Source: a virus
Strand: one strand, 5' to 3'
Virus record (IMG/VR): IMGVR_UViG_3300003309_000009
Span: 47,859 to 111,858 of that record
Length of the DNA stretch: 64,000 nt
This document shows positions 319 to 52,283 of the stretch, one piece after another. Position 1 is the stretch's first letter. Every line of letters begins with the position of its first letter. Position numbers and translations under genes: made by a program. A model generated the notes under the pieces. That model had not been told where the DNA came from. It made no database searches and saw only the letters and a program-made list of their open reading frames with translations.

Positions 319-3300
319 ATGCTAACTAACGATTATAAACTTTATGTCGATAGCATTATCCTACTAACCCGCAGTCTTGTAATTAAATCTACACAGACTA
401 TTGACGCCCTAAATAGATATTTACAAGATCGTAACGAATTTGTTGACCTAAATGACCCCACCAGCTGGAAATATTATTTAAATTTATCAGGTGAGTATCA
501 TTACTCCGATACTCCGATGGAAATTCTATCATTAGATACCCCCGGAGTTACAATACCATTTGATAAAGATTTAAAAGTTAATCATCCATTAACCTATAGT
601 GAATATTTAACCTATGGGCGCTTTTATAATGAGCTGGTAGATAAATACCCTGAACAAGAAGAACTCATTAATGGTATCTTAAAACCGATTGATATTAATG
701 AAGCCATAGATGCTAAGGATTACACTATCCTACAGTATGATAGTCGCTATGTTGGTGCGGGTGAGACTTCGCTAATCAACGACTTACAGGAATGGATATG
801 GTCTTATGAAGCCCGCTGGGATAACAAGGCTTATAATGAGACGGACCCGCTATATGGTGCAACCATCATTGGTATCCTTTATAGTCATATCCCTGGTAAA
901 ATCATTAACCTACGATTAGCTAGTTGTAAAACCCCACAGGCCCATGAATATCATATTTGGAATTACCTCAGTGGTTATTATAACCTAGGGGATTTTAAAG
1001 ATAGGATCCACCACGCGCAGGCCCTGTGGTTATACCGCAACATGGAATTCTTAGTTAATAATGCTGGTTTAGAATCTACGCTGGATTTATTACATGAAGA
1101 CTTCTGTAAACCTTATGGGTTAACACTAGATCGCATTACATTACAAAAGTCTAATGATACGCTATTAAGTACATTAAAACATGAGCCAATCGCCAGTATC
1201 ACAGCACTTAATGATGATGGTGTCATCACTGATGCTTCAAATAGCATTGAGATTGATGATTTACTTAAGCGTATGCGTAGTGAAGCACTGCTGAATAGTG
1301 AAAATGAAGAAGCGCATGTTAAGCTATTAAAGAACCGTATTCTTCAATCCGAAGCCACGGCTATTCCAACAGGTATAATGGAGGCTAATGTAACAACTGC
1401 TGCATCGGCCCTTTATGTCGATAGTGTTGATGAACATTTTGCTCACTGGTTTTATCTATCGAGCGTTGGTTTATTTCCTTATAAATTTACCATTGAGATC
1501 CCGGGTAGGGATGCGGTTGTAGTAAGCTCATCTGAAGCAATTGCTATTTTGCTATTTTGTGCAATGCGTTACCAATCGATTCCCCTTAACACCATCCCAG
1601 TTATTCAAGTAAAGGATATCATGCGTACCCCTGCAGGTATTACGGATGCTGACTTAACCGGATTGGTTGAAAAGCACTTCATTAGTCAGGAGCGTATCGA
1701 TGACGTTAAGCGCGATATTGTTGAACCAAAGCAAGTACTTAGTGTACCGGAGTTTAAAGCTCATGTTGATGAAGTATTAAAACGCAAAGTCTTACATCGT
1801 CTATTTGTTACAAATGAAAAGGGATCAACCGGTAGGGCGGAGTTAAGAAGACTCACGGATATGTTCTACTTTAATCATGAATGTAGCTTTACTAGTTTTT
1901 CAGATTACCCTGCATTCTTTTTAAATATTCAAACCGATCTTAATGGATTAAGTGGCGCAGATTATGCAAACTTAGCAGAATCTATTGTTAATCATTTTGT
2001 TGGTCTTGTTCGTGAAGAGAATGGACTGGCAAGTCCGTATTATGAAATGGTTGAGATTGTTAAAATTCTTTCTAGTTACACGGTGAACATTATCCCCGGT
2101 GTAGGTAGTGAATCGTTTGAATCGATAGAGTGGGCTTTCCTATACCCGTGTTTGGAAATTGAAGAGTTAATCCATGACCAAGTTATAACACATAAAACTG
2201 TTGTAACCAATACAGAAGACCATGAGATTGATATCTTAACTGATGACGAAGACGACGGTCTACAACTGGAAGTACTTCAAGAACAGGAAGTAGGTGCTCA
2301 AATGGAAGTGGGTATTGAAATTGGTAATGAGCAGGAAATTGAAAAGGATAGAGTACTGCTAACAAACATTGACCTTAAAATTGAAGAAGAAATTACTGGC
2401 GAATCACTCGGTAATAAATCAGTTGTTCCTGGTCAAACGCATGCGTGGGCTGGTGAAACGAATAACGCAAGTTATTACAGTGCTGGTGCATATCTAACCA
2501 ATAGTGCTAACAGCAGCTATGTGCAAGGTGCGGCAGAAACAACCTTTTTCGATAGCTTTAGTCTATTTGCAACACTATCTCAGCCTGTAGGAGCTGGTCC
2601 GGCACCATTAACAAGTAATGCCTATGTTGGTATGTGTTTTGTTGGGCAGGATCTAGCTAGCCGTACCGCGCCACTACCGCCATATTATTTCAGAGTAAAG
2701 GACACTTCCGAAATAGAAATGCCAGATGGCTCTGGTGGTACAATCGCTATTCCATTAACGGCTGGTCCTAAACATGTTGAAATACATAGAACCATTGACA
2801 CTAGTGGTCCTGAGCCCGTAGTTAATGTAGAGTACATTGTAGATGATAATGTCGTTAATCAGTACACCGATGAATTAGCGTTGCCTGCACGATTGATCGT
2901 ACATGGATGGGATGGACTCTTCATCGGAGGACTATATGTGGTAGGAAGTGATGCTACTGAAAGTTCTGCTGGTCCTTATGATGCTATTATTATTCCCGGT
3001 GTTACACATAGTTGGAATACAAGCGATGCACTTGTTCCCGCTAATTACATGGCGGGCTCTGTTGACATTGGTGCATCAGGGTCAGTTTATAACTGGTGGC
3101 GCTACGGCGGTCGTGTTGATGATCCAGAAGCCATTCTCTATGGAGACTTTGAATTATCATTTAAGGTTGCTGATGATGGTATTGTATCACCCACAGGTGT
3201 TCGTGCCCATGTAGGTTTGCAAACAGTACCCGATAGAAACAAAGCTAAATTCCATAGTTATAATTTCTTTAACTATTCATTTGTCACAGGTGCTGTTAGT

Positions 3301-4419
3301 GCCGGTAGAGAAGAATATGGTTTGGAGACTGGATCCCCTAGTAATATTCAGATAGCAAGTTCATTCCAGCCATCGGATGTATTTAAGATGCGTAGGACAG
3401 GAACAGTCTATGAATATATTCACAATGGAAATGTAGTTTATAGCTTTGATACCGGTAACCGCTTTTCAGTGACACCGCCATTAATGTTGAACATTGTTTC
3501 TGGTAACGGTATTAAACTTACTGATATGTCAATTAAGACAGTAAGTAAGGATAAGCTTGGAATTACTAATGAACACTGGGAGCCTGGTAACCTATTTAAT
3601 AACGGTGAGAACGGCGCTCTATTAGACATTGCCCTTTCTAACTTCCAGAGTCTACCAGGTAGTGCCAATGATCTTACCTTTGGCTCTATTAGTGTAGTTG
3701 AAGATGCATCGGGTAATAACAACAGTTGGCTACAAAACAACACTAGCTTTAGACCTAATGTTAATCGTAAAGATGGACTATATGGGTATAATAAAAACAT
3801 GCCACATGTAGATATGAATCCTATCGTTAGTAAAAATAGTGATTATACGGTCTGGTGCGTGGGTGAAATTCAACCAGGTTCTGGTGGGTTAAACGACGTG
3901 CAGGCGTTAGTGGGTGGTCGACTAGAGTATACCGTGGGATCTTCACAGGGTCAAGAAACACGTACGAACTTCAATGCTGATTTTGCGCATTTCATTGGCC
4001 TACATGAATCAGGTAGTAGTCCTAGACATTGGGCCGCTGGCAGAATCAACAATACGTTAAGTTATGTAGCTGATTGGGGTACGGGTGTTGGCTTTGAAAG
4101 ACAGTACAATGATGGTACAACAGTCCCATTCTTTGATAACAGAGTGCTTATTGGTTTTAGTATTGATCATACTAACGGCACGCATACTGTCCATATACCA
4201 AGTCATGGTATCAAGGAAGTCTTCCCACTAGACTTAAACCTAGTTGCAAATATTAGGGATCTTAATATCTTCCATGATCCATTGCAGCAGAATATCTCTA
4301 CCGCGGAGCGTAACCGAAATGCACAGGTGCAGCAAGCCGGTGTTATTGACAGAGTTCTAACAGATGCGGAATGGGATAGTCTACTACTTTACGCTAAGCG
4401 ATATTTAGCCATTAAATAA
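319..4419 (+). CDS. Virion baseplate protein (gp128-like N-terminal ~690 aa) with a long beta-rich C-terminal extension
   Basis: N-terminal motif WKYYLNLSGEYH..D..M...SLDT and HEYHIWNYL resemble phiKZ gp128 family members. The C-terminal ~670 aa are G/N/S/W-rich and internally repeated. Confidence 0.75.
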   Translation: MLTNDYKLYVDSIILLTRSLVIKSTQTIDALNRYLQDRNEFVDLNDPTSWKYYLNLSGEYHYSDTPMEILSLDTPGVTIPFDKDLKVNHPLTYSEYLTYGRFYNELVDKYPEQEELINGILKPIDINEAIDAKDYTILQYDSRYVGAGETSLINDLQEWIWSYEARWDNKAYNETDPLYGATIIGILYSHIPGKIINLRLASCKTPQAHEYHIWNYLSGYYNLGDFKDRIHHAQALWLYRNMEFLVNNAGLESTLDLLHEDFCKPYGLTLDRITLQKSNDTLLSTLKHEPIASITALNDDGVITDASNSIEIDDLLKRMRSEALLNSENEEAHVKLLKNRILQSEATAIPTGIMEANVTTAASALYVDSVDEHFAHWFYLSSVGLFPYKFTIEIPGRDAVVVSSSEAIAILLFCAMRYQSIPLNTIPVIQVKDIMRTPAGITDADLTGLVEKHFISQERIDDVKRDIVEPKQVLSVPEFKAHVDEVLKRKVLHRLFVTNEKGSTGRAELRRLTDMFYFNHECSFTSFSDYPAFFLNIQTDLNGLSGADYANLAESIVNHFVGLVREENGLASPYYEMVEIVKILSSYTVNIIPGVGSESFESIEWAFLYPCLEIEELIHDQVITHKTVVTNTEDHEIDILTDDEDDGLQLEVLQEQEVGAQMEVGIEIGNEQEIEKDRVLLTNIDLKIEEEITGESLGNKSVVPGQTHAWAGETNNASYYSAGAYLTNSANSSYVQGAAETTFFDSFSLFATLSQPVGAGPAPLTSNAYVGMCFVGQDLASRTAPLPPYYFRVKDTSEIEMPDGSGGTIAIPLTAGPKHVEIHRTIDTSGPEPVVNVEYIVDDNVVNQYTDELALPARLIVHGWDGLFIGGLYVVGSDATESSAGPYDAIIIPGVTHSWNTSDALVPANYMAGSVDIGASGSVYNWWRYGGRVDDPEAILYGDFELSFKVADDGIVSPTGVRAHVGLQTVPDRNKAKFHSYNFFNYSFVTGAVSAGREEYGLETGSPSNIQIASSFQPSDVFKMRRTGTVYEYIHNGNVVYSFDTGNRFSVTPPLMLNIVSGNGIKLTDMSIKTVSKDKLGITNEHWEPGNLFNNGENGALLDIALSNFQSLPGSANDLTFGSISVVEDASGNNNSWLQNNTSFRPNVNRKDGLYGYNKNMPHVDMNPIVSKNSDYTVWCVGEIQPGSGGLNDVQALVGGRLEYTVGSSQGQETRTNFNADFAHFIGLHESGSSPRHWAAGRINNTLSYVADWGTGVGFERQYNDGTTVPFFDNRVLIGFSIDHTNGTHTVHIPSHGIKEVFPLDLNLVANIRDLNIFHDPLQQNISTAERNRNAQVQQAGVIDRVLTDAEWDSLLLYAKRYLAIK

Positions 4420-17817: not shown

Positions 17818-18561
17818 TTACGATTTTTGCATATGATGATGATTAAGAGTGTTAACGCGATCACAATCGTAAGTGATTAGCTTACCCAGATCAGCCACCA
17901 TTGAATCGAGATGTTCTTTAAAGGATAAGAATGCTTTAGTTAAAACATCTGTTGATAAGTGTGAGACTAATCGGTCATTAAAGAAATTAGCGACGGCTAT
18001 TTGACGGTTTGTACCATTCGAAAGAACAATATCTCGCATCACATTAATATCTTCATCTGAAACTTTATCACCCCAGTATTCTAAAAATGCGAAGCAATAC
18101 CGCTGGCGACCATATTCATTATCAGGACTAATGCAATCCAGATAGTCTTTAAAACAACCTACTCGAATTGCTTCACTAGCAGCGATGTCCACATAATGAC
18201 CTACAGACTTTTGAACAATCAACGCTGTATCTAACGAAATATTTTCCATTAACTTCTTATTGCGCTTAGTAAGGACAGCTACATTTCTTTTAGCAGTTGT
18301 TCCTGGTTCTACCGCTGCAGCGTAAATGGCTTTAGTTTCCGGAAGACTAAGGACATGCTTTTTAATACGCTTAGACAGAGCCTTGTGTCTGGGGAAGTGA
18401 TTAGTGGTATAAGATAGTGGGGATGCAATAAGACCATTATCATTGATAACCCCCTGGATATTATTCCAGGTTGCTTCTCCATCATTAATTAACTTATCAA
18501 TGCTATTTAAAATAACATCAACACGCTCTGCTTGCTTTAGTCGTTGTTCTTTTTTTGACAT
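17818..18561 (-). CDS. Hypothetical protein
   Basis: 247-aa ORF in the accessory operon. Confidence 0.75.
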   Translation of the reverse strand: MSKKEQRLKQAERVDVILNSIDKLINDGEATWNNIQGVINDNGLIASPLSYTTNHFPRHKALSKRIKKHVLSLPETKAIYAAAVEPGTTAKRNVAVLTKRNKKLMENISLDTALIVQKSVGHYVDIAASEAIRVGCFKDYLDCISPDNEYGRQRYCFAFLEYWGDKVSDEDINVMRDIVLSNGTNRQIAVANFFNDRLVSHLSTDVLTKAFLSFKEHLDSMVADLGKLITYDCDRVNTLNHHHMQKS

Positions 18562-18582
18562 GGTTTTTTCCTTACCAGTTAT

Positions 18583-19404
18583 TTATAGGGGGTATTTAAG
18601 ACGAACCTGATATTGGTCCTCGACCGCAGCCAGTGCCGCATCTTCAAAACTATTTTTGTCGTTCATGGCAAATGAGATATCTATATTAGAATTATTATCA
18701 CCACAGTTGTAGTCCATAGTACCTTTGCCGGGTGTTAATACAGGCTCCTCGCTAATGACATGATATCTATAACCTGTTACATTAAACCACCTCGAGTACC
18801 TTAATGTGACATTGTACTTAATTACAGTTAGAGTAACTTCTGTTTCAGGATATTCGTCATGTGCTGGAACAGTGCCAACAATGACCTTCCTACTGTCCTC
18901 TTCAGAAATATATTCATGACGGCCTTTTAACACATCCTCCGGTACAAAGCTATAATCCCACCCACGATGGGTGGAGAAGCCACCCTGGTCATGCCACCAG
19001 TAAAAACCACAGTGTTCCAAAGTTAACCGAAAGCCAAACTCCCGACCATGGTAACCATCTCTTTGAATCCAGCGGTGGAGTCGGGTGACAGGACCATCCA
19101 TTGAGAATCTAAAGCGCACTAACCATGGAATGGCTACGCAAAAGACAAACGTATCTTCAAAATCATCACCAATAACAACCTTGAGAGCAAGGGCATCATT
19201 CTTAGTGGAGAATATATTGAGAGAAACATCAAGGCTCCTACCACTTTGGCTATAATGAAGAATAAGTCGTTCATTTCTTACCATCTGAAACCAGACGCCT
19301 TCACCAAGTTTGCGAAGAGGGATGTTTATCATATTCGCCAGGAATAGAACAACATTAAATAGTCCAGAACGGACTAAGGTAAATGGGTTGATTATTTTCA
19401 TCAA
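18583..19404 (-). CDS. Hypothetical phage protein
   Basis: 273 aa, aromatic-rich, C-terminal PGKGxxxYxCGD motif that I recall from uncharacterised proteins of unrelated phages. Confidence 0.75.
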   Translation of the reverse strand: MMKIINPFTLVRSGLFNVVLFLANMINIPLRKLGEGVWFQMVRNERLILHYSQSGRSLDVSLNIFSTKNDALALKVVIGDDFEDTFVFCVAIPWLVRFRFSMDGPVTRLHRWIQRDGYHGREFGFRLTLEHCGFYWWHDQGGFSTHRGWDYSFVPEDVLKGRHEYISEEDSRKVIVGTVPAHDEYPETEVTLTVIKYNVTLRYSRWFNVTGYRYHVISEEPVLTPGKGTMDYNCGDNNSNIDISFAMNDKNSFEDAALAAVEDQYQVRLKYPL

Positions 19405-47563: not shown

Positions 47564-48094
47564 TTAATTCAATCTCAATTTATTAAAAATATTAGCTTCT
47601 TTAGTTCCACTAATGTTAACTAAACGATCTATCATTGGATTACGATCTTCTGGATCATCAATAGTAGATATGTAATTAACAAATACATCAATGTCATCTG
47701 GGTGTGACAAATACCATAACTTTGCTATTGGCTTTGATCCCATCCTGGTGAACATTACAGCGTCACGAATTCCAGCAAGCGCTTCATTGTAATCATAGTT
47801 GGATATATTAAAATTCGTAGAGGCCACTGCTAATGTTTGAATGAAGTTTGATAGTAGACTAACAGAAGCGTGATTAAATAATAGATGCAATAGAGTTTTT
47901 TGCTCTACGCATATATGACCAATAACACCAAGTAATGCTGTAAGGTTATTACTAACTATAGCCGCCTTAAGAATTTCATCCTTAACCTCCGGCGATCCAT
48001 CATAAATGTAATTCAGCTGGCAAGCTAGTAGGAACCCATCTTGATGTTCTTGAAATCCCGATAGTTCTTTTTCTATGAGGTCTATGTAAGACAT
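47564..48094 (-). CDS. Hypothetical protein
   Basis: 176-aa ORF in the accessory operon. Confidence 0.72.
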   Translation of the reverse strand: MSYIDLIEKELSGFQEHQDGFLLACQLNYIYDGSPEVKDEILKAAIVSNNLTALLGVIGHICVEQKTLLHLLFNHASVSLLSNFIQTLAVASTNFNISNYDYNEALAGIRDAVMFTRMGSKPIAKLWYLSHPDDIDVFVNYISTIDDPEDRNPMIDRLVNISGTKEANIFNKLRLN

Positions 48095-49652: not shown

Positions 49653-49679
49653 AAATAGGGGACCATTGGTCCCCTATTT
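49653..49679 (-). terminator. Intrinsic terminator after the -1 frame ORF
   Basis: AAATAGGGGACC-ATT-GGTCCCCTATTT overlapping the stop at 49678-49680. Confidence 0.8.
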
Positions 49680-50145
49680 ATTTTTTACCAGAACCGCTGG
49701 TATCTCGAATAATTTTATCATGTTCAGCATTTTCAATCTTACTCTGCTCGATAGCATTCATCACATGAAATTCTAATTCATAATTTGGAAGATCGAGGAG
49801 TTGGTTGATATCTAAACCAATCAATTCATGGAGACGAAGTTTAGATAACCTCCCCATAGCTATCATCAGTGGTGAGTCGGTTAGAACATCTGTCGACTCA
49901 TTACATGTTACATACGACAGAGGATTTTTACTGTTAACATCTCTTATTCCAGCGACAAGTTCAAAGAAGTTACGACGGGTGATATCAATATCATAGCCAC
50001 TTTTATAATACCTACTCCATAATTCCGTTTGAAGTGCACTAGCGGTATCTTTATCTAAAGTGGCGTGATATCTATTGATAATCTTTTTATTGATTACCTG
50101 CCCGGTCTCCTCATCGTACTCCGCAATTCCAGTATAGTAAAAAAA
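49678..50145 (-). CDS. Reading frame probably reached by -1 frameshift (tail-chaperone T-like domain)
   Basis: Open from 50172 to 49678 with no ATG/GTG/TTG until 49866. Entered by slippage at T TTT TTT. Ends RLHELIGLDINQLLDLPNYELEF. Confidence 0.65.
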   Translation of the reverse strand, partial: FFYYTGIAEYDEETGQVINKKIINRYHATLDKDTASALQTELWSRYYKSGYDIDITRRNFFELVAGIRDVNSKNPLSYVTCNESTDVLTDSPLMIAMGRLSKLRLHELIGLDINQLLDLPNYELEFHVMNAIEQSKIENAEHDKIIRDTSGSGKK

Positions 50146-51767
50146 TAGCTCGGCATATGAATAGGAATAACTTCACCCTCCGAACCATCTAACTCCAATT
50201 GTGGTGATTTACAAGAAGGACATTTATAGTTAGTTAAGCCTGTAATACCTACGGTTGTCCGCTCTTTATAAATCTTTATTGCTGTTAGGAGAAACTCTTC
50301 AGCATCCTCATCACGAGAAAGAATATCAAAGATGGCCATTAGAGACTCTTCGCCATTACTGCCACTACCAATGTGTCTAACTGTACCACTGGCATCGGTA
50401 ATCTTAACATCATGGATCCAATGCATTTCACGCATAAGAAACAAATTACGAGTGTGTTCCAGCTGATATTCATAGCGAGCCTTTAACAGCTCATCCGGCA
50501 TCATGTCTTCAGAGCCAACCGCCATACTCTTCTCTAATGCTGATTCAATCATCGAGATAAACTTATTTGTCACATGCTCATAAACTGTTAAGTTAGGAGT
50601 CTTAAAGAGAAACTCAAGGTTTAAGTCTCCAATATTTATCTTACAACGACGTAGTTCTTCGGGAATAGAATCGCGCACCCGCGCCTGGTAATTAAGAATA
50701 TGATCTTCATCATGCTCACCATCACCTTTAACAGACATATGTCTACGAAGTTCTATAGTTAATAGCTTCGCATCTGTAATTGCCAATTTATCAAAATGCA
50801 TCATGCTATCTGGTAAGATTTTACCCGTAGTAGGATCTCTGTCAATTTCGATAGTATGATTACATTCTTCATTTGTACAAACATGATGAATTGGATAGCC
50901 ACCTGGGTAGATGGTAGCAAGACCGCCTGCCATCATCAACATGATGTCTTGGGGAACAATAAGCTCTCTAAGTTTTTCTTTAGTCCAACCTCTTAAGTTG
51001 CTTTTAATCGTGTGATCAAGAATAAAGTCTACAGTAGCATCATTCATTAAACCATCGTCAGCAGAGTATAACGTACCCGCTGTTGCATATCCCAAGCTAG
51101 TATGCATTCTACGTAGTAAAATGGTGTGTTCTAATAACTCTCGCTCACGGAAAGGTCGGAGTTGTAAAACAATACCAGAGTTATAAAGTAGTACTCTGGT
51201 CGGCATGCCGGTACCGGAGGTTGAAAATAGATACTGAATGGCCTCTGGACCCGTTAAACGATCTGAATCGCCTTTTAACTTAACTGATAATAGACGGGGA
51301 ACCACAGACTTGCCATCTAACATTGGACGATTGCCCCAGATACCATAACTATTGATATCTTGATACATAGGGTCTTGGAAGTCTGTCTCTACCACTGTAG
51401 CAATGGTATCTTGCAATTCATTAAACTTCTGAGTTGCTTCAGCCTTACTATACTTTTCAAAAAGCTTTTTCTTGGCCGCATTTAAAAAATCAATATGATC
51501 CTGTGCACCAGTATTAGAGCCTTTGACGTATAAAAACGGCATCTTGTTTTGGTAATTTTCTGGAAGATCAGAAAATGGTGAATGTTGCGATGTCTCTGCT
51601 ATTTCAACAATCTCATCTTCTAATTCAGCTACTTCCGAACTGGAGATCTCTAGGGTCTCGGTACCCCAGTCATCTTCTATGGGATTCTGACTCTCCTCTT
51701 CTACCTTCGTAGAATCAGGAGCACCAGGCTGATTTTCTTCAGCGTCTTTATATTCTTCGTCTTTCAC
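50094..51767 (-). CDS. Conserved protein (gp77-like), candidate tail/baseplate assembly chaperone
   Basis: Acidic N-tail, HVCTNEECNH and CPSCK Cys pairs, C-terminal IPIHMPSYFF. This resembles T4 gp26-like and tail-chaperone proteins that end in FF. Confidence 0.65.
   Translation of the reverse strand: MKDEEYKDAEENQPGAPDSTKVEEESQNPIEDDWGTETLEISSSEVAELEDEIVEIAETSQHSPFSDLPENYQNKMPFLYVKGSNTGAQDHIDFLNAAKKKLFEKYSKAEATQKFNELQDTIATVVETDFQDPMYQDINSYGIWGNRPMLDGKSVVPRLLSVKLKGDSDRLTGPEAIQYLFSTSGTGMPTRVLLYNSGIVLQLRPFRERELLEHTILLRRMHTSLGYATAGTLYSADDGLMNDATVDFILDHTIKSNLRGWTKEKLRELIVPQDIMLMMAGGLATIYPGGYPIHHVCTNEECNHTIEIDRDPTTGKILPDSMMHFDKLAITDAKLLTIELRRHMSVKGDGEHDEDHILNYQARVRDSIPEELRRCKINIGDLNLEFLFKTPNLTVYEHVTNKFISMIESALEKSMAVGSEDMMPDELLKARYEYQLEHTRNLFLMREMHWIHDVKITDASGTVRHIGSGSNGEESLMAIFDILSRDEDAEEFLLTAIKIYKERTTVGITGLTNYKCPSCKSPQLELDGSEGEVIPIHMPSYFFTILELRSTMRRPGR
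50139..50145 (-). other. Candidate -1 programmed ribosomal frameshift site T TTT TTT
   Basis: TAT TTT TTT ACT in the 0 frame; the -1 frame gives TTT TTT TAC and stays open for 153 codons. Confidence 0.6.
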
Positions 51768-51770
51768 AAC

Positions 51771-52283
51771 TTAACCCTCAGGTTGAATAGATTCAATAAT
51801 GGTAGTAATTCGCTCACAGTTAGGCTGCATAGCGGTATTAACATCCGTTGTTAGTGAAATCACATCACTAAATTGAGCGATGTAATCCGGTAGGTCCATA
51901 GGATCTACATCACCAGATTTACCATCATATCCTTTCTGTAGCTCTTTAGATTTCTTAACAAAATAGTTAGCATCTTCAACCACAGCTTTTTGTAAACCAA
52001 TTAGTTCGTTGGCACGTTCTTTATCACTGGCTAGAAGTTCGCCAACGATACCCATTGACGTAGTTGCAATATTTAAATACTGCTGCACTACAGCCACGCA
52101 GGTAAGATGCATCTGCTCCAACTCTTCCCAACGATCAAAACGCTTTTCACCGTCTTCCGAAGGTTTGATTTTTAAATCTGTATTCTGAAGCTTACGCTCC
52201 AACTTCTTACGCTGAGTCTTCTCTTTCTTCTTACGACGAATATCAGCCTGTGTAATTTTTTTGACTTTTGGCGTGTCAGTCAT
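51771..52283 (-). CDS. Conserved hypothetical protein, basic N-terminus and helical bundle
   Basis: 170 aa, first gene of the operon with the gp77-like gene. Confidence 0.75.
   Translation of the reverse strand: MTDTPKVKKITQADIRRKKKEKTQRKKLERKLQNTDLKIKPSEDGEKRFDRWEELEQMHLTCVAVVQQYLNIATTSMGIVGELLASDKERANELIGLQKAVVEDANYFVKKSKELQKGYDGKSGDVDPMDLPDYIAQFSDVISLTTDVNTAMQPNCERITTIIESIQPEG

Follow-up and report, generated by a model that had tools for sequence, protein, structure and literature searches.

The window analysed here is a 64,000-nucleotide stretch of viral DNA, positions 47,859 to 111,858 of the IMG/VR record IMGVR_UViG_3300003309_000009, which derives from a coral-metagenome run. The source is a phiKZ-like jumbo phage. 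The RNA polymerase beta-subunit genes in the window are split, and it also encodes a major head protein and a DNA polymerase, both of the phiKZ type. On the minus strand of the window, a gene for a protein of 557 amino acids (aa) carries a run of seven thymines (T7) 14 codons before its stop codon, and an open reading frame (ORF) of 153 codons continues from the run in the -1 frame. We propose that the 557-aa gene and this downstream ORF, which lacks an early start codon, are a single recoded gene of the phiKZ gp77 family. A candidate -1 frameshift had been noted at this place in an initial annotation made from the sequence alone, and its description of the heptamer T TTT TTT, of a -1 frame start-less for about 90 codons, and of a terminator at the stop codon of that frame was confirmed.

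The T-run lies in the context AGC TAT TTT TTT ACT, which includes the codons of a conserved Tyr-Phe-Phe motif (Table 1). In the zero frame, the run is followed by 14 codons (TILELRSTMRRPGR) and the TAA stop codon at positions 50096-50094. The -1 frame opens nine codons upstream of the run and after it reads FFYYTGIAEYDEETGQ... for 153 codons (the start is also written FFYYTGIAEYDEETGQVINKK...). The first ATG, GTG, or TTG codon in this frame is the ATG at codon 91 (position 49866). The long form predicted from the sequence consists of residues 1-543 of the 557-aa protein joined to the -1 extension, and has 696 aa. At the predicted trans-frame junction (...IHMPSYFFYYTGIAEYDEETGQVINK), MPSYFF is followed by YYTGIAEY, which gives the junction peptide SYFFYYTGIAEYDEETGQVINK. 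The zero-frame tail and the beginning of the extension are encoded by the same nucleotides, and the corresponding dual-coding overlap has a length of 8-44 codons in relatives. The terminator, located at 49679-49653, marks the end of the transcription unit.

The zero-frame stop codon is preceded by the Shine-Dalgarno (SD)-like hexamer GAGGAG (50112-50107), which is positioned 9 nt before a GTA and 12 nt before an ATC. The GTA/TAA and TAA/ATC overlaps at this stop codon mimic the GTGA and TAATG stop-start geometries, like a coupled start minus its G. The initial annotation had reported neither a strong stimulatory hairpin nor an internal SD; no conserved structure was found, in keeping with its statement about the hairpin, whereas that about the SD needs some amendment because of this hexamer, although the hexamer is not followed by a canonical start codon.

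Table 1. Features of the recoded locus and its immediate surroundings in the window.
Feature	Coordinates	Strand	Remarks
Zero-frame ORF (short form), 557 aa, GTG start	50094..51767	-	phiKZ gp77 family, phrog_4585
Slippery heptamer T TTT TTT (X XXY YYZ) across TAT TTT TTT of conserved Tyr-Phe-Phe	50139..50145	-	Proposed -1 shift site
-1 frame extension YYTGIAEYDEETGQ...GSGKK, 153 codons and TAA (49680-49678)	49678..50138	-	First base 50139 shared with heptamer
Dual-coding overlap: 14 zero-frame codons and stop = first 15 extension codons	50094..50138	-	
Intrinsic terminator: 12-bp stem, 6 GC pairs, loop 3, T-tract	49653..49679	-	Overlaps stop of -1 extension
GAGGAG-N9-GTAATC: SD-like hexamer upstream of zero-frame stop	50092..50112	-	Without canonical start codon
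First invariant Cys pair, C297 and C302 (VCTNEEC)	50862..50879	-	Invariant in 95 sequences
Second invariant Cys pair, C516-P-S-C519, 22 residues before the FF shift site	50211..50222	-	Invariant in 95 sequences
Upstream gene, 170 aa, syntenic counterpart of phiKZ gp78	51771..52283	-	Stop 3 nt before start of 557-aa gene

The 557-aa protein belongs to a family that is present throughout the phiKZ-like jumbo phages. It matches positions 44-537 of the 551 in the profile of phrog_4585 with an expect value (E) of 8.7e-51, and since this match is nearly full-length, the zero-frame product is a complete family member. The orthologue from phiKZ is PHIKZ077, also named gp77, whose predicted short and long forms have 533 and 687 aa. 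The assignment of the window gene to the phiKZ gp77 family is based on the near-full-length match to the hidden Markov model and on synteny: a small gene, the gp77-like gene, and the extension follow one another, with divergent genes on the RNA polymerase side, and the order of small gene, big gene, and extension is present in every annotated relative. A tblastn search with the 557-aa protein identified 131 jumbo-phage records with 22-27% sequence identity, and an exhaustive HMMER search retrieved 999 representatives with E<=1e-3, the nearest of which are 33-35% identical. The window protein is a deep-branching member of the gp77 family: its identity to the isolates is 17-23%, and no metagenomic representative exceeds 35%. 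Essentially all of the HMMER representatives end within approximately 15 residues of the Phe-Phe motif (FF), as was checked for the best 150 (150/150), and none of these 150 is a continuous fusion of the 696-aa type.

The extension is more divergent than could be detected directly. Used alone as a query in tblastn and in a word-based protein search, it gave no matches because of this divergence, and its homology emerged solely from PHROG profiles and a synteny-derived alignment. It weakly matches PHROGs of small jumbo-phage proteins (phrog_12109 with E 1.4e-6, phrog_34350, and phrog_7580) and aligns with the -1 extensions of 11 metagenomic relatives at 18-28% identity. Loci of the same family that share the T-run and the -1 extension are annotated as pairs of genes: gp77 and 'gp76.4' in phiKZ, gp074 and 073 in PhiPA3, 00081 and 00082 in Goslar, and gp267 and 266 in RAY. 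Compared with these pairs, the window is the cleanest case, since its extension lacks ATG, GTG, and TTG for 91 codons, and an annotation of a separate gene that would cover the conserved part is therefore impossible.

The locus was compared with 34 others, which came from 23 isolate phages, 6 metagenome contigs that are the nearest relatives of the window, and 5 IMG/VR contigs. The isolates infect Pseudomonas, Vibrio, Erwinia, Serratia, Ralstonia, Xanthomonas, Salmonella, Escherichia, and Aeromonas, and one is a Bacillus phage. The IMG/VR loci were found with an alignment of closer sequences; the 557-aa protein alone returned none, and an alignment of 14 sequences was too divergent. Every record has a separate small gene annotated or called downstream, and in all 34 loci this ORF lies in the -1 frame relative to the big gene. 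The gaps between the annotated genes measure 17, 23, 26, 41, 44, 53, 62, 77, 89, 92, 95, 194, and 218 nt, all of which are 2 modulo 3. Counted from FF, the open stretch is 140-172 codons long in the -1 frame, 8-44 codons in the zero frame, and 1-88 codons in the +1 frame. The T-run and the start-less overlap in the -1 frame are thus retained in 34/34 relatives, which strongly supports the claim of the initial annotation that the gene pair is one frameshifted gene.

In each of the 34 loci the FF motif is encoded by a run of five to nine thymines (T5-T9), and the canonical heptamer T TTT TTN is present in 29 of them. The second Phe codon is TTC in some homologues, a substitution that the initial annotation had named as telling against a frameshift, but T TTT TTC is still slippery. 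The residue preceding FF varies (Tyr, Val, Gly, Ile, Thr, Leu, or Ser), yet its codon nearly always ends in T, even though the background frequency of T in the third position is 0.12-0.46, and 0.12-0.16 in the GC-rich phages. The first Phe codon is TTT even in genomes that prefer TTC four- to nine-fold; the counts of TTT and TTC are 2 and 17 in DT01, and 2 and 18 in RSL2. These regularities indicate that selection at the T-run acts on the nucleotide sequence. The zero-frame tail after the run is also conserved (FF[TSA][IL]L...). Therefore, the termination of the short form appears to be maintained as well, and both short and long forms are expected.

The segment that follows the zero-frame stop, up to where the small genes are annotated to start, has been treated as a spacer. 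In phiKZ, pEa54, Ea277G, Moabite, and others, the conserved motifs GH[VI]..FG and LL.RE.Y..FGI..H....P.SLV are located upstream of the annotated start; in phiKZ, the -1 reading after FF is YFGGLEVKPDGV. The ratio of nonsynonymous to synonymous substitution rates in the -1 frame of this spacer (codons 21-60) is 0.25-0.29 in the pairs RSL2/RSF1 and LucasX/RTH11, and that of the rest of the extension is 0.11-0.26, which suggests that the spacer is coding sequence under purifying selection in the -1 frame. The starts annotated for the small genes lie at various positions 18-91 codons after FF, and most are TTG or GTG codons that lack an SD. In nine loci (phiKZ, Moabite, pEa54, BONAISHI, pVa-21, L030, L031, L034, and L038) the upstream stop codon of the -1 frame is 0-4 codons before the run, in L038 immediately before it, and a start of the extension upstream of the run is therefore impossible there. 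The pattern across the 34 loci matches the predictions of a conserved -1 recoding site, and is hard to reconcile with two independent genes.

The Xanthomonas phage RTH11 (OQ790161.1, approximately 2625-2640) has a T7 run where its sister LucasX has T8. As deposited, the big coding sequence of RTH11 runs in a junk frame for approximately 70 codons, with the normal tail of the family, FFTLLGQR, in its -1 frame and the extension in its +1 frame. The one-T difference reflects either a wrong homopolymer length in the record or a genuine deletion of one nucleotide. The frames of the annotated coding sequences being off, RTH11 was counted by its sequence and not by its annotation.

Most ribosomes would read TAT TTT TTT ACT in frame and terminate 14 codons further on, producing the 557-aa short form. 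A minority would slip back by one base on T TTT TTT, which would allow both Phe-tRNAs to re-pair with UUU in the -1 frame, and would translate 153 further codons to complete the 696-aa long form. The helical extension, which has no start of its own, would exist solely within the long form, where it would be the C-terminal domain, and the frequency of slipping would set the ratio of short to long forms. Judged from the nucleotide and protein sequences, a recoding event at the T-run that yields the 557-aa and 696-aa forms is very probable, and programmed -1 ribosomal frameshifting is probably the mechanism behind it. The locus combines the features by which a -1 frameshift is recognized, an in-register X XXY YYZ heptamer and a long conserved -1 ORF without an initiation signal of its own.

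Several observations weigh against a frameshift at this site. No stimulatory hairpin or pseudoknot after the run is conserved (the z-scores of folding range from -3.1 to +1.7 in relatives, and are 0.14 and -0.6 in the window), and no conserved SD upstream of the shift site was found in the window or in relatives. The efficiency of frameshifting may therefore be low. The heptamer is imperfect in five of the 34 loci: it is G TTT TTC in Noxifer, G TTT TTT in PhiPA3, C TTT TTT in L029 and L030, and A CTT TTT in pVa-21. In the nearest relatives, gene callers place a GTG start four codons after FF, and some independent initiation may take place in the window from the ATT at that position or from GAGGAG-N9-GTAATC.

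As the main alternative for the window, the extension might be a separate gene that initiates on its own. In the window this would require a non-canonical start, either the ATT at 50127 or, downstream of GAGGAG, the GTA at 50097 or the ATC at 50094, perhaps through termination-reinitiation, and the T-run would be a by-product of Tyr-Phe-Phe in an AT-rich genome. This would agree with the annotation of two genes in 23/23 isolate records, with the spacing of GAGGAG from the GTA and ATC codons in the window, and with FF being a conserved protein motif, for which some T-richness is expected. The GTG four codons after FF, which was taken as a start in the near relatives L028 and L030-L033, favours it too. 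However, this GTG is forced by a conserved zero-frame Glu-Trp (GAR TGG), which gives RTG one base earlier, and it has no SD; the window has Glu-Leu at this position, hence the ATT, and most relatives also lack the GTG, so that the ordinary downstream start with a ribosome-binding site, which the initial annotation had listed as evidence against a frameshift, did not materialize. No start position is conserved among the loci, the first canonical start being 18-91 codons after FF and beyond the conserved motifs in phiKZ, pEa54, Ea277G, RAY, Moabite, and the window, and GAGGAG-N9-GTAATC is not conserved among relatives. A separate gene also leaves unexplained why the downstream ORF occupies the -1 frame of 34/34 loci and is open back to the run with gaps that are all 2 modulo 3, why TTT and a preceding NNT codon are kept in GC-rich genomes, and why the window has 91 start-less codons. 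We give it a low probability, slightly below that of slippage by the polymerase, in which the phage RNA polymerase would stutter on A7 in the template, transcribed as U7, and insert an extra U into a fraction of the transcripts, whose normal translation would produce an identical 696-aa protein. Polymerase slippage, itself unlikely, would suit the long homopolymers of several phages (T7 in the window; T8 in LucasX, Goslar, RAY, RSL2, and L037; T9 in L028), the lack of a conserved RNA structure of the kind used by many ribosomal frameshift sites, and the one-T difference between RTH11 and its sister, which points to a run that is unstable in length at some level; the phiKZ-type polymerases are also unusual enzymes. 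Against it, the runs are only T5-T6 in Noxifer, pVa-21, pir03, Yong, BONAISHI, PhiPA3, AeroD6, L029, and L030, and T5-T6 is short for efficient polymerase slippage. Furthermore, the in-frame X XXY YYZ register, with T as the preceding third base and TTT as the first Phe codon, is conserved, which matters for the re-pairing of tRNA and not for stuttering.

It is very improbable that the frame break is an artefact or a lesion, whether a homopolymer assembly error, a frameshift mutation in a continuous gene of approximately 696 aa, or a sign of a decaying gene. The locus comes from a single metagenome run, with no independent run containing it, and database records can give such runs the wrong length, as the RTH11 record illustrates. 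The IMG/VR, ENA MEGAHIT, and Logan assemblies of the source run agree on the T-run and are identical across 2.9 kb, all three being built from the same reads and thus not independent. However, independent isolates and metagenomes, which supplied the 34 other loci, all show the break, the zero-frame tail is conserved as well as the -1 extension, and the best 150 representatives include no continuous fusion. A search of sequencing runs found the locus in the source run only and listed no RNA run as containing it, and a DNA-level search of a phage collection with the locus gave no match. The T7 run alone is unremarkable, since the window (39% GC) has 13 runs of at least seven thymines on its two strands. 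What sets the site apart is its frame layout: the long ORFs of the window contain 19 in-frame T6N or A6N heptamers, and the -1 frame extends for 153 codons at the site described here and for 29 codons at the next longest.

The structure of the 557-aa form was predicted by AlphaFold2 from a 95-sequence alignment with a mean predicted local distance difference test score (pLDDT) of 88.3 and a predicted template modelling (TM) score of 0.87, and residues 1-46 are disordered. Residues C297, C302, C516, C519, and F542 are invariant in the alignment, and the second Cys pair has weak matches to zinc-ribbon families in Pfam. The four invariant cysteines suggest a putative zinc site, and the model suggests that the body of the protein is a zinc-binding, four-Cys alpha/beta protein. 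A Foldseek search of BFVD with the model returned, after the orthologues, approximately 15 proteins named T4-like baseplate hub assembly protein, subunit, or chaperone (E from 1.8e-4 to 5e-2, probability 0.9-1.0, TM score approximately 0.45-0.53 normalized by the target and 0.2-0.3 by the query), and a search of the PDB with the same model gave no match at E<=0.001. The order of motifs in the 557-aa protein is C297/C302, IGDLNLEFLFKTP, C516PSC519, and YFFTIL, and is collinear with that in gp26 of phage T4, as read from the T4 record: C-x-C (CTC), GDIKIKFRYP, CPEC, and EFFELL followed by the stop codon. The similar FF end of gp26 mentioned in the initial annotation is thus there in the T4 record, and C516PSC519 aligns to CPEC of gp26 in hhalign.

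The profile comparisons speak against a functional assignment based on this resemblance. Alignments to T4 gp26 and gp51 by hhalign were local, restricted to the shared motifs, and had probabilities of 3-28%. The Pfam family PF12322 (cut-off of 24.5 bits), which as a control recognized T4 gp26 with 216 bits and gp51 with 178 bits, was not matched by the 557-aa protein (E<=1) or by 10 relatives (E<=0.1), and NCBIfam had no match for any member tested. A six-frame search of five complete relatives with PF12322 also gave no match. In the genome of the window, the same search gave 18.7 bits at approximately 18472-18717, a probably spurious match that spans the stop codon between two genes, neither of whose proteins matches alone. 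These are ORFs of 273 and 247 aa in the same frame (17818-19404, minus strand), split by one TAA and a 21-nt spacer. The link to T4 gp26/gp51 proposed in the initial annotation is based on a possible similarity of fold and on the order of motifs, with no match to PF12322; the 557-aa body appears gp26/gp51-like in its modelled fold and layout, and is at most a candidate member of that family.

The predicted structure of the extension is helical, ends in a 30-residue helix, and has a pLDDT of 71.5. In BFVD it matches solely annotated small jumbo-phage proteins, and among 48,161 PDB chains it produced only generic long-helix matches with Z<=5.5. Because these structural matches are uninformative, no fold was assigned to the extension. 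No tail-assembly-chaperone family was matched in Pfam, PHROGs, or NCBIfam, and no such match rose above noise in BFVD or the PDB. The label of a G/GT-type tail chaperone given by the initial annotation was not borne out: Pfam gave no match to a tail-assembly-chaperone family, the short form has 557 aa and not approximately 100-150, and the neighbouring genes are not tail genes.

The homologue of phiKZ gp077 in phage Churi (gp256) is listed as a non-virion protein that was detected 15 min post infection in two proteomic experiments (Table 1 of PMC11849849). Its non-virion status fits a chaperone, and its early presence is a poor fit to a tail chaperone. The gene also adjoins RNA polymerase genes and not tail genes, which likewise counts against a function in tail assembly. 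The short and long forms would most likely be a non-virion assembly factor, in which the extension would add a second surface for binding or oligomerization in the manner of lambda G/GT. That this assembly role is related to that of T4 gp26/gp51 is plausible but tentative, with the balance somewhat against it. More doubtful still is the fuller version, in which the frameshift would be the jumbo-phage route to the two hub-assembly paralogues of T4, the short form being gp26-like and the long form gp51-like; to assemble the baseplate hub or tail initiation complex, the phage would need the two in a fixed ratio set by translation, a second G/GT-like logic that would have evolved independently in an unrelated protein family, would be universal in phiKZ-like and related jumbo phages, and would have escaped all public annotations. 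Less expected still, the two forms may serve an early process instead of tail assembly, because the homologue is non-virion and present 15 min after infection.

In the window, the neighbours of the recoded gene are the 170-aa upstream gene of unknown function, a divergent unknown gene of phrog_5038, the RNA polymerase beta-subunit gene (phrog_2962), and four small unknown genes downstream, and as the initial annotation had stated, the tube and tape-measure genes are not next to it. The locus is flanked by genes for RNA polymerase, Clp protease, and helicase in relatives. An unknown gene of 110-230 aa is always located directly upstream in relatives, where it often overlaps or abuts the start of the gp77-like gene. 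The gene at this gp78 position may be a functional partner of the gp77-like gene.

No description of a frameshift in phiKZ, Chimalliviridae, SPN3US, or gp77/gp077/PHIKZ077 was found in open-access papers and bioRxiv, and 'gp77' in the papers on Goslar, PCH45, and PhiPA3 denotes other proteins. The mechanism proposed is of a known kind, placed in a new, universally conserved jumbo-phage gene. If the proposal is correct, hundreds of genome records mis-annotate a core gene shared by all phiKZ-like, nucleus-forming jumbo phages, and the small hypothetical gene (gp76.4 in phiKZ, gp073 in PhiPA3, 00082 in Goslar, and others) is the C-terminal domain of a longer gp77 isoform. Knock-outs, essentiality calls from transposon sequencing (Tn-seq), proteomics searches, and structural models of these phages would need to be re-read. 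The G/GT paradigm, in which frameshifting sets the short-to-long ratio of an assembly factor, would gain a recoding site that is deeply conserved and belongs to an unrelated protein family. Slippage on bare U-runs that lack stimulators could also be tested at this natural site, in cells where the phage nucleus separates translation from transcription in space. With the window, the conservation reaches a very divergent lineage of marine, coral-associated origin, in which no canonical start is possible for the extension.

The gene 10 products 10A and 10B of phage T7 and the tau and gamma products of Escherichia coli dnaX are classic bacterial -1 frameshifts on X XXY YYZ heptamers, which generate two products with different C-termini in a fixed ratio. 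The form proposed here would resemble T7 10B in being a C-terminally extended minor form. Unlike the site described here, for which no such elements were found, dnaX has an upstream SD and a downstream hairpin, and its frameshift shortens the product. The gene families of T7 gene 10 and dnaX are unrelated to the gp77 family.

The -1 frameshift of the tail assembly chaperone genes, exemplified by gpG/gpGT of phage lambda, is reportedly conserved in long-tailed phages. Lambda G/GT frameshifts at a few per cent even though it lacks a strong stimulator, and the E/E+E' pair of phage P2 slips on T TTT TTG. As in lambda G/GT, the proposed -1 slip occurs near the 3' end of the upstream ORF, and the short and long products would share their N-terminal body. 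The extension is start-less, the homopolymeric heptamer has no obvious strong stimulator, and the layout is kept while the sequences diverge. In contrast to lambda G/GT, with its approximately 100-150 aa, the body here has 557 aa and a four-Cys site, and the gene adjoins those of the RNA polymerase subunits instead of lying between the tube and tape-measure genes. Searches of Pfam, BFVD, and the PDB found no relationship in sequence or fold. The G/GT label is thus best used as a mechanistic analogy only.

The likeness to T4 gp26/gp51 consists of the fold-level matches of the model and the linear motif order of gp26. The jumbo-phage protein is 2.5 times larger than its T4 counterpart and does not match PF12322. 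In T4, gp26 (2803-3429, minus strand) is short and ends just after FF, and its paralogue gp51 (3480-4229, plus strand) runs approximately 45 residues further. T4 makes its short and long versions from two genes, together with an internal product 26', and not by frameshifting. A parallel between the short and long paralogues of T4 and the short and long isoforms proposed here is a suggestive idea, by analogy.

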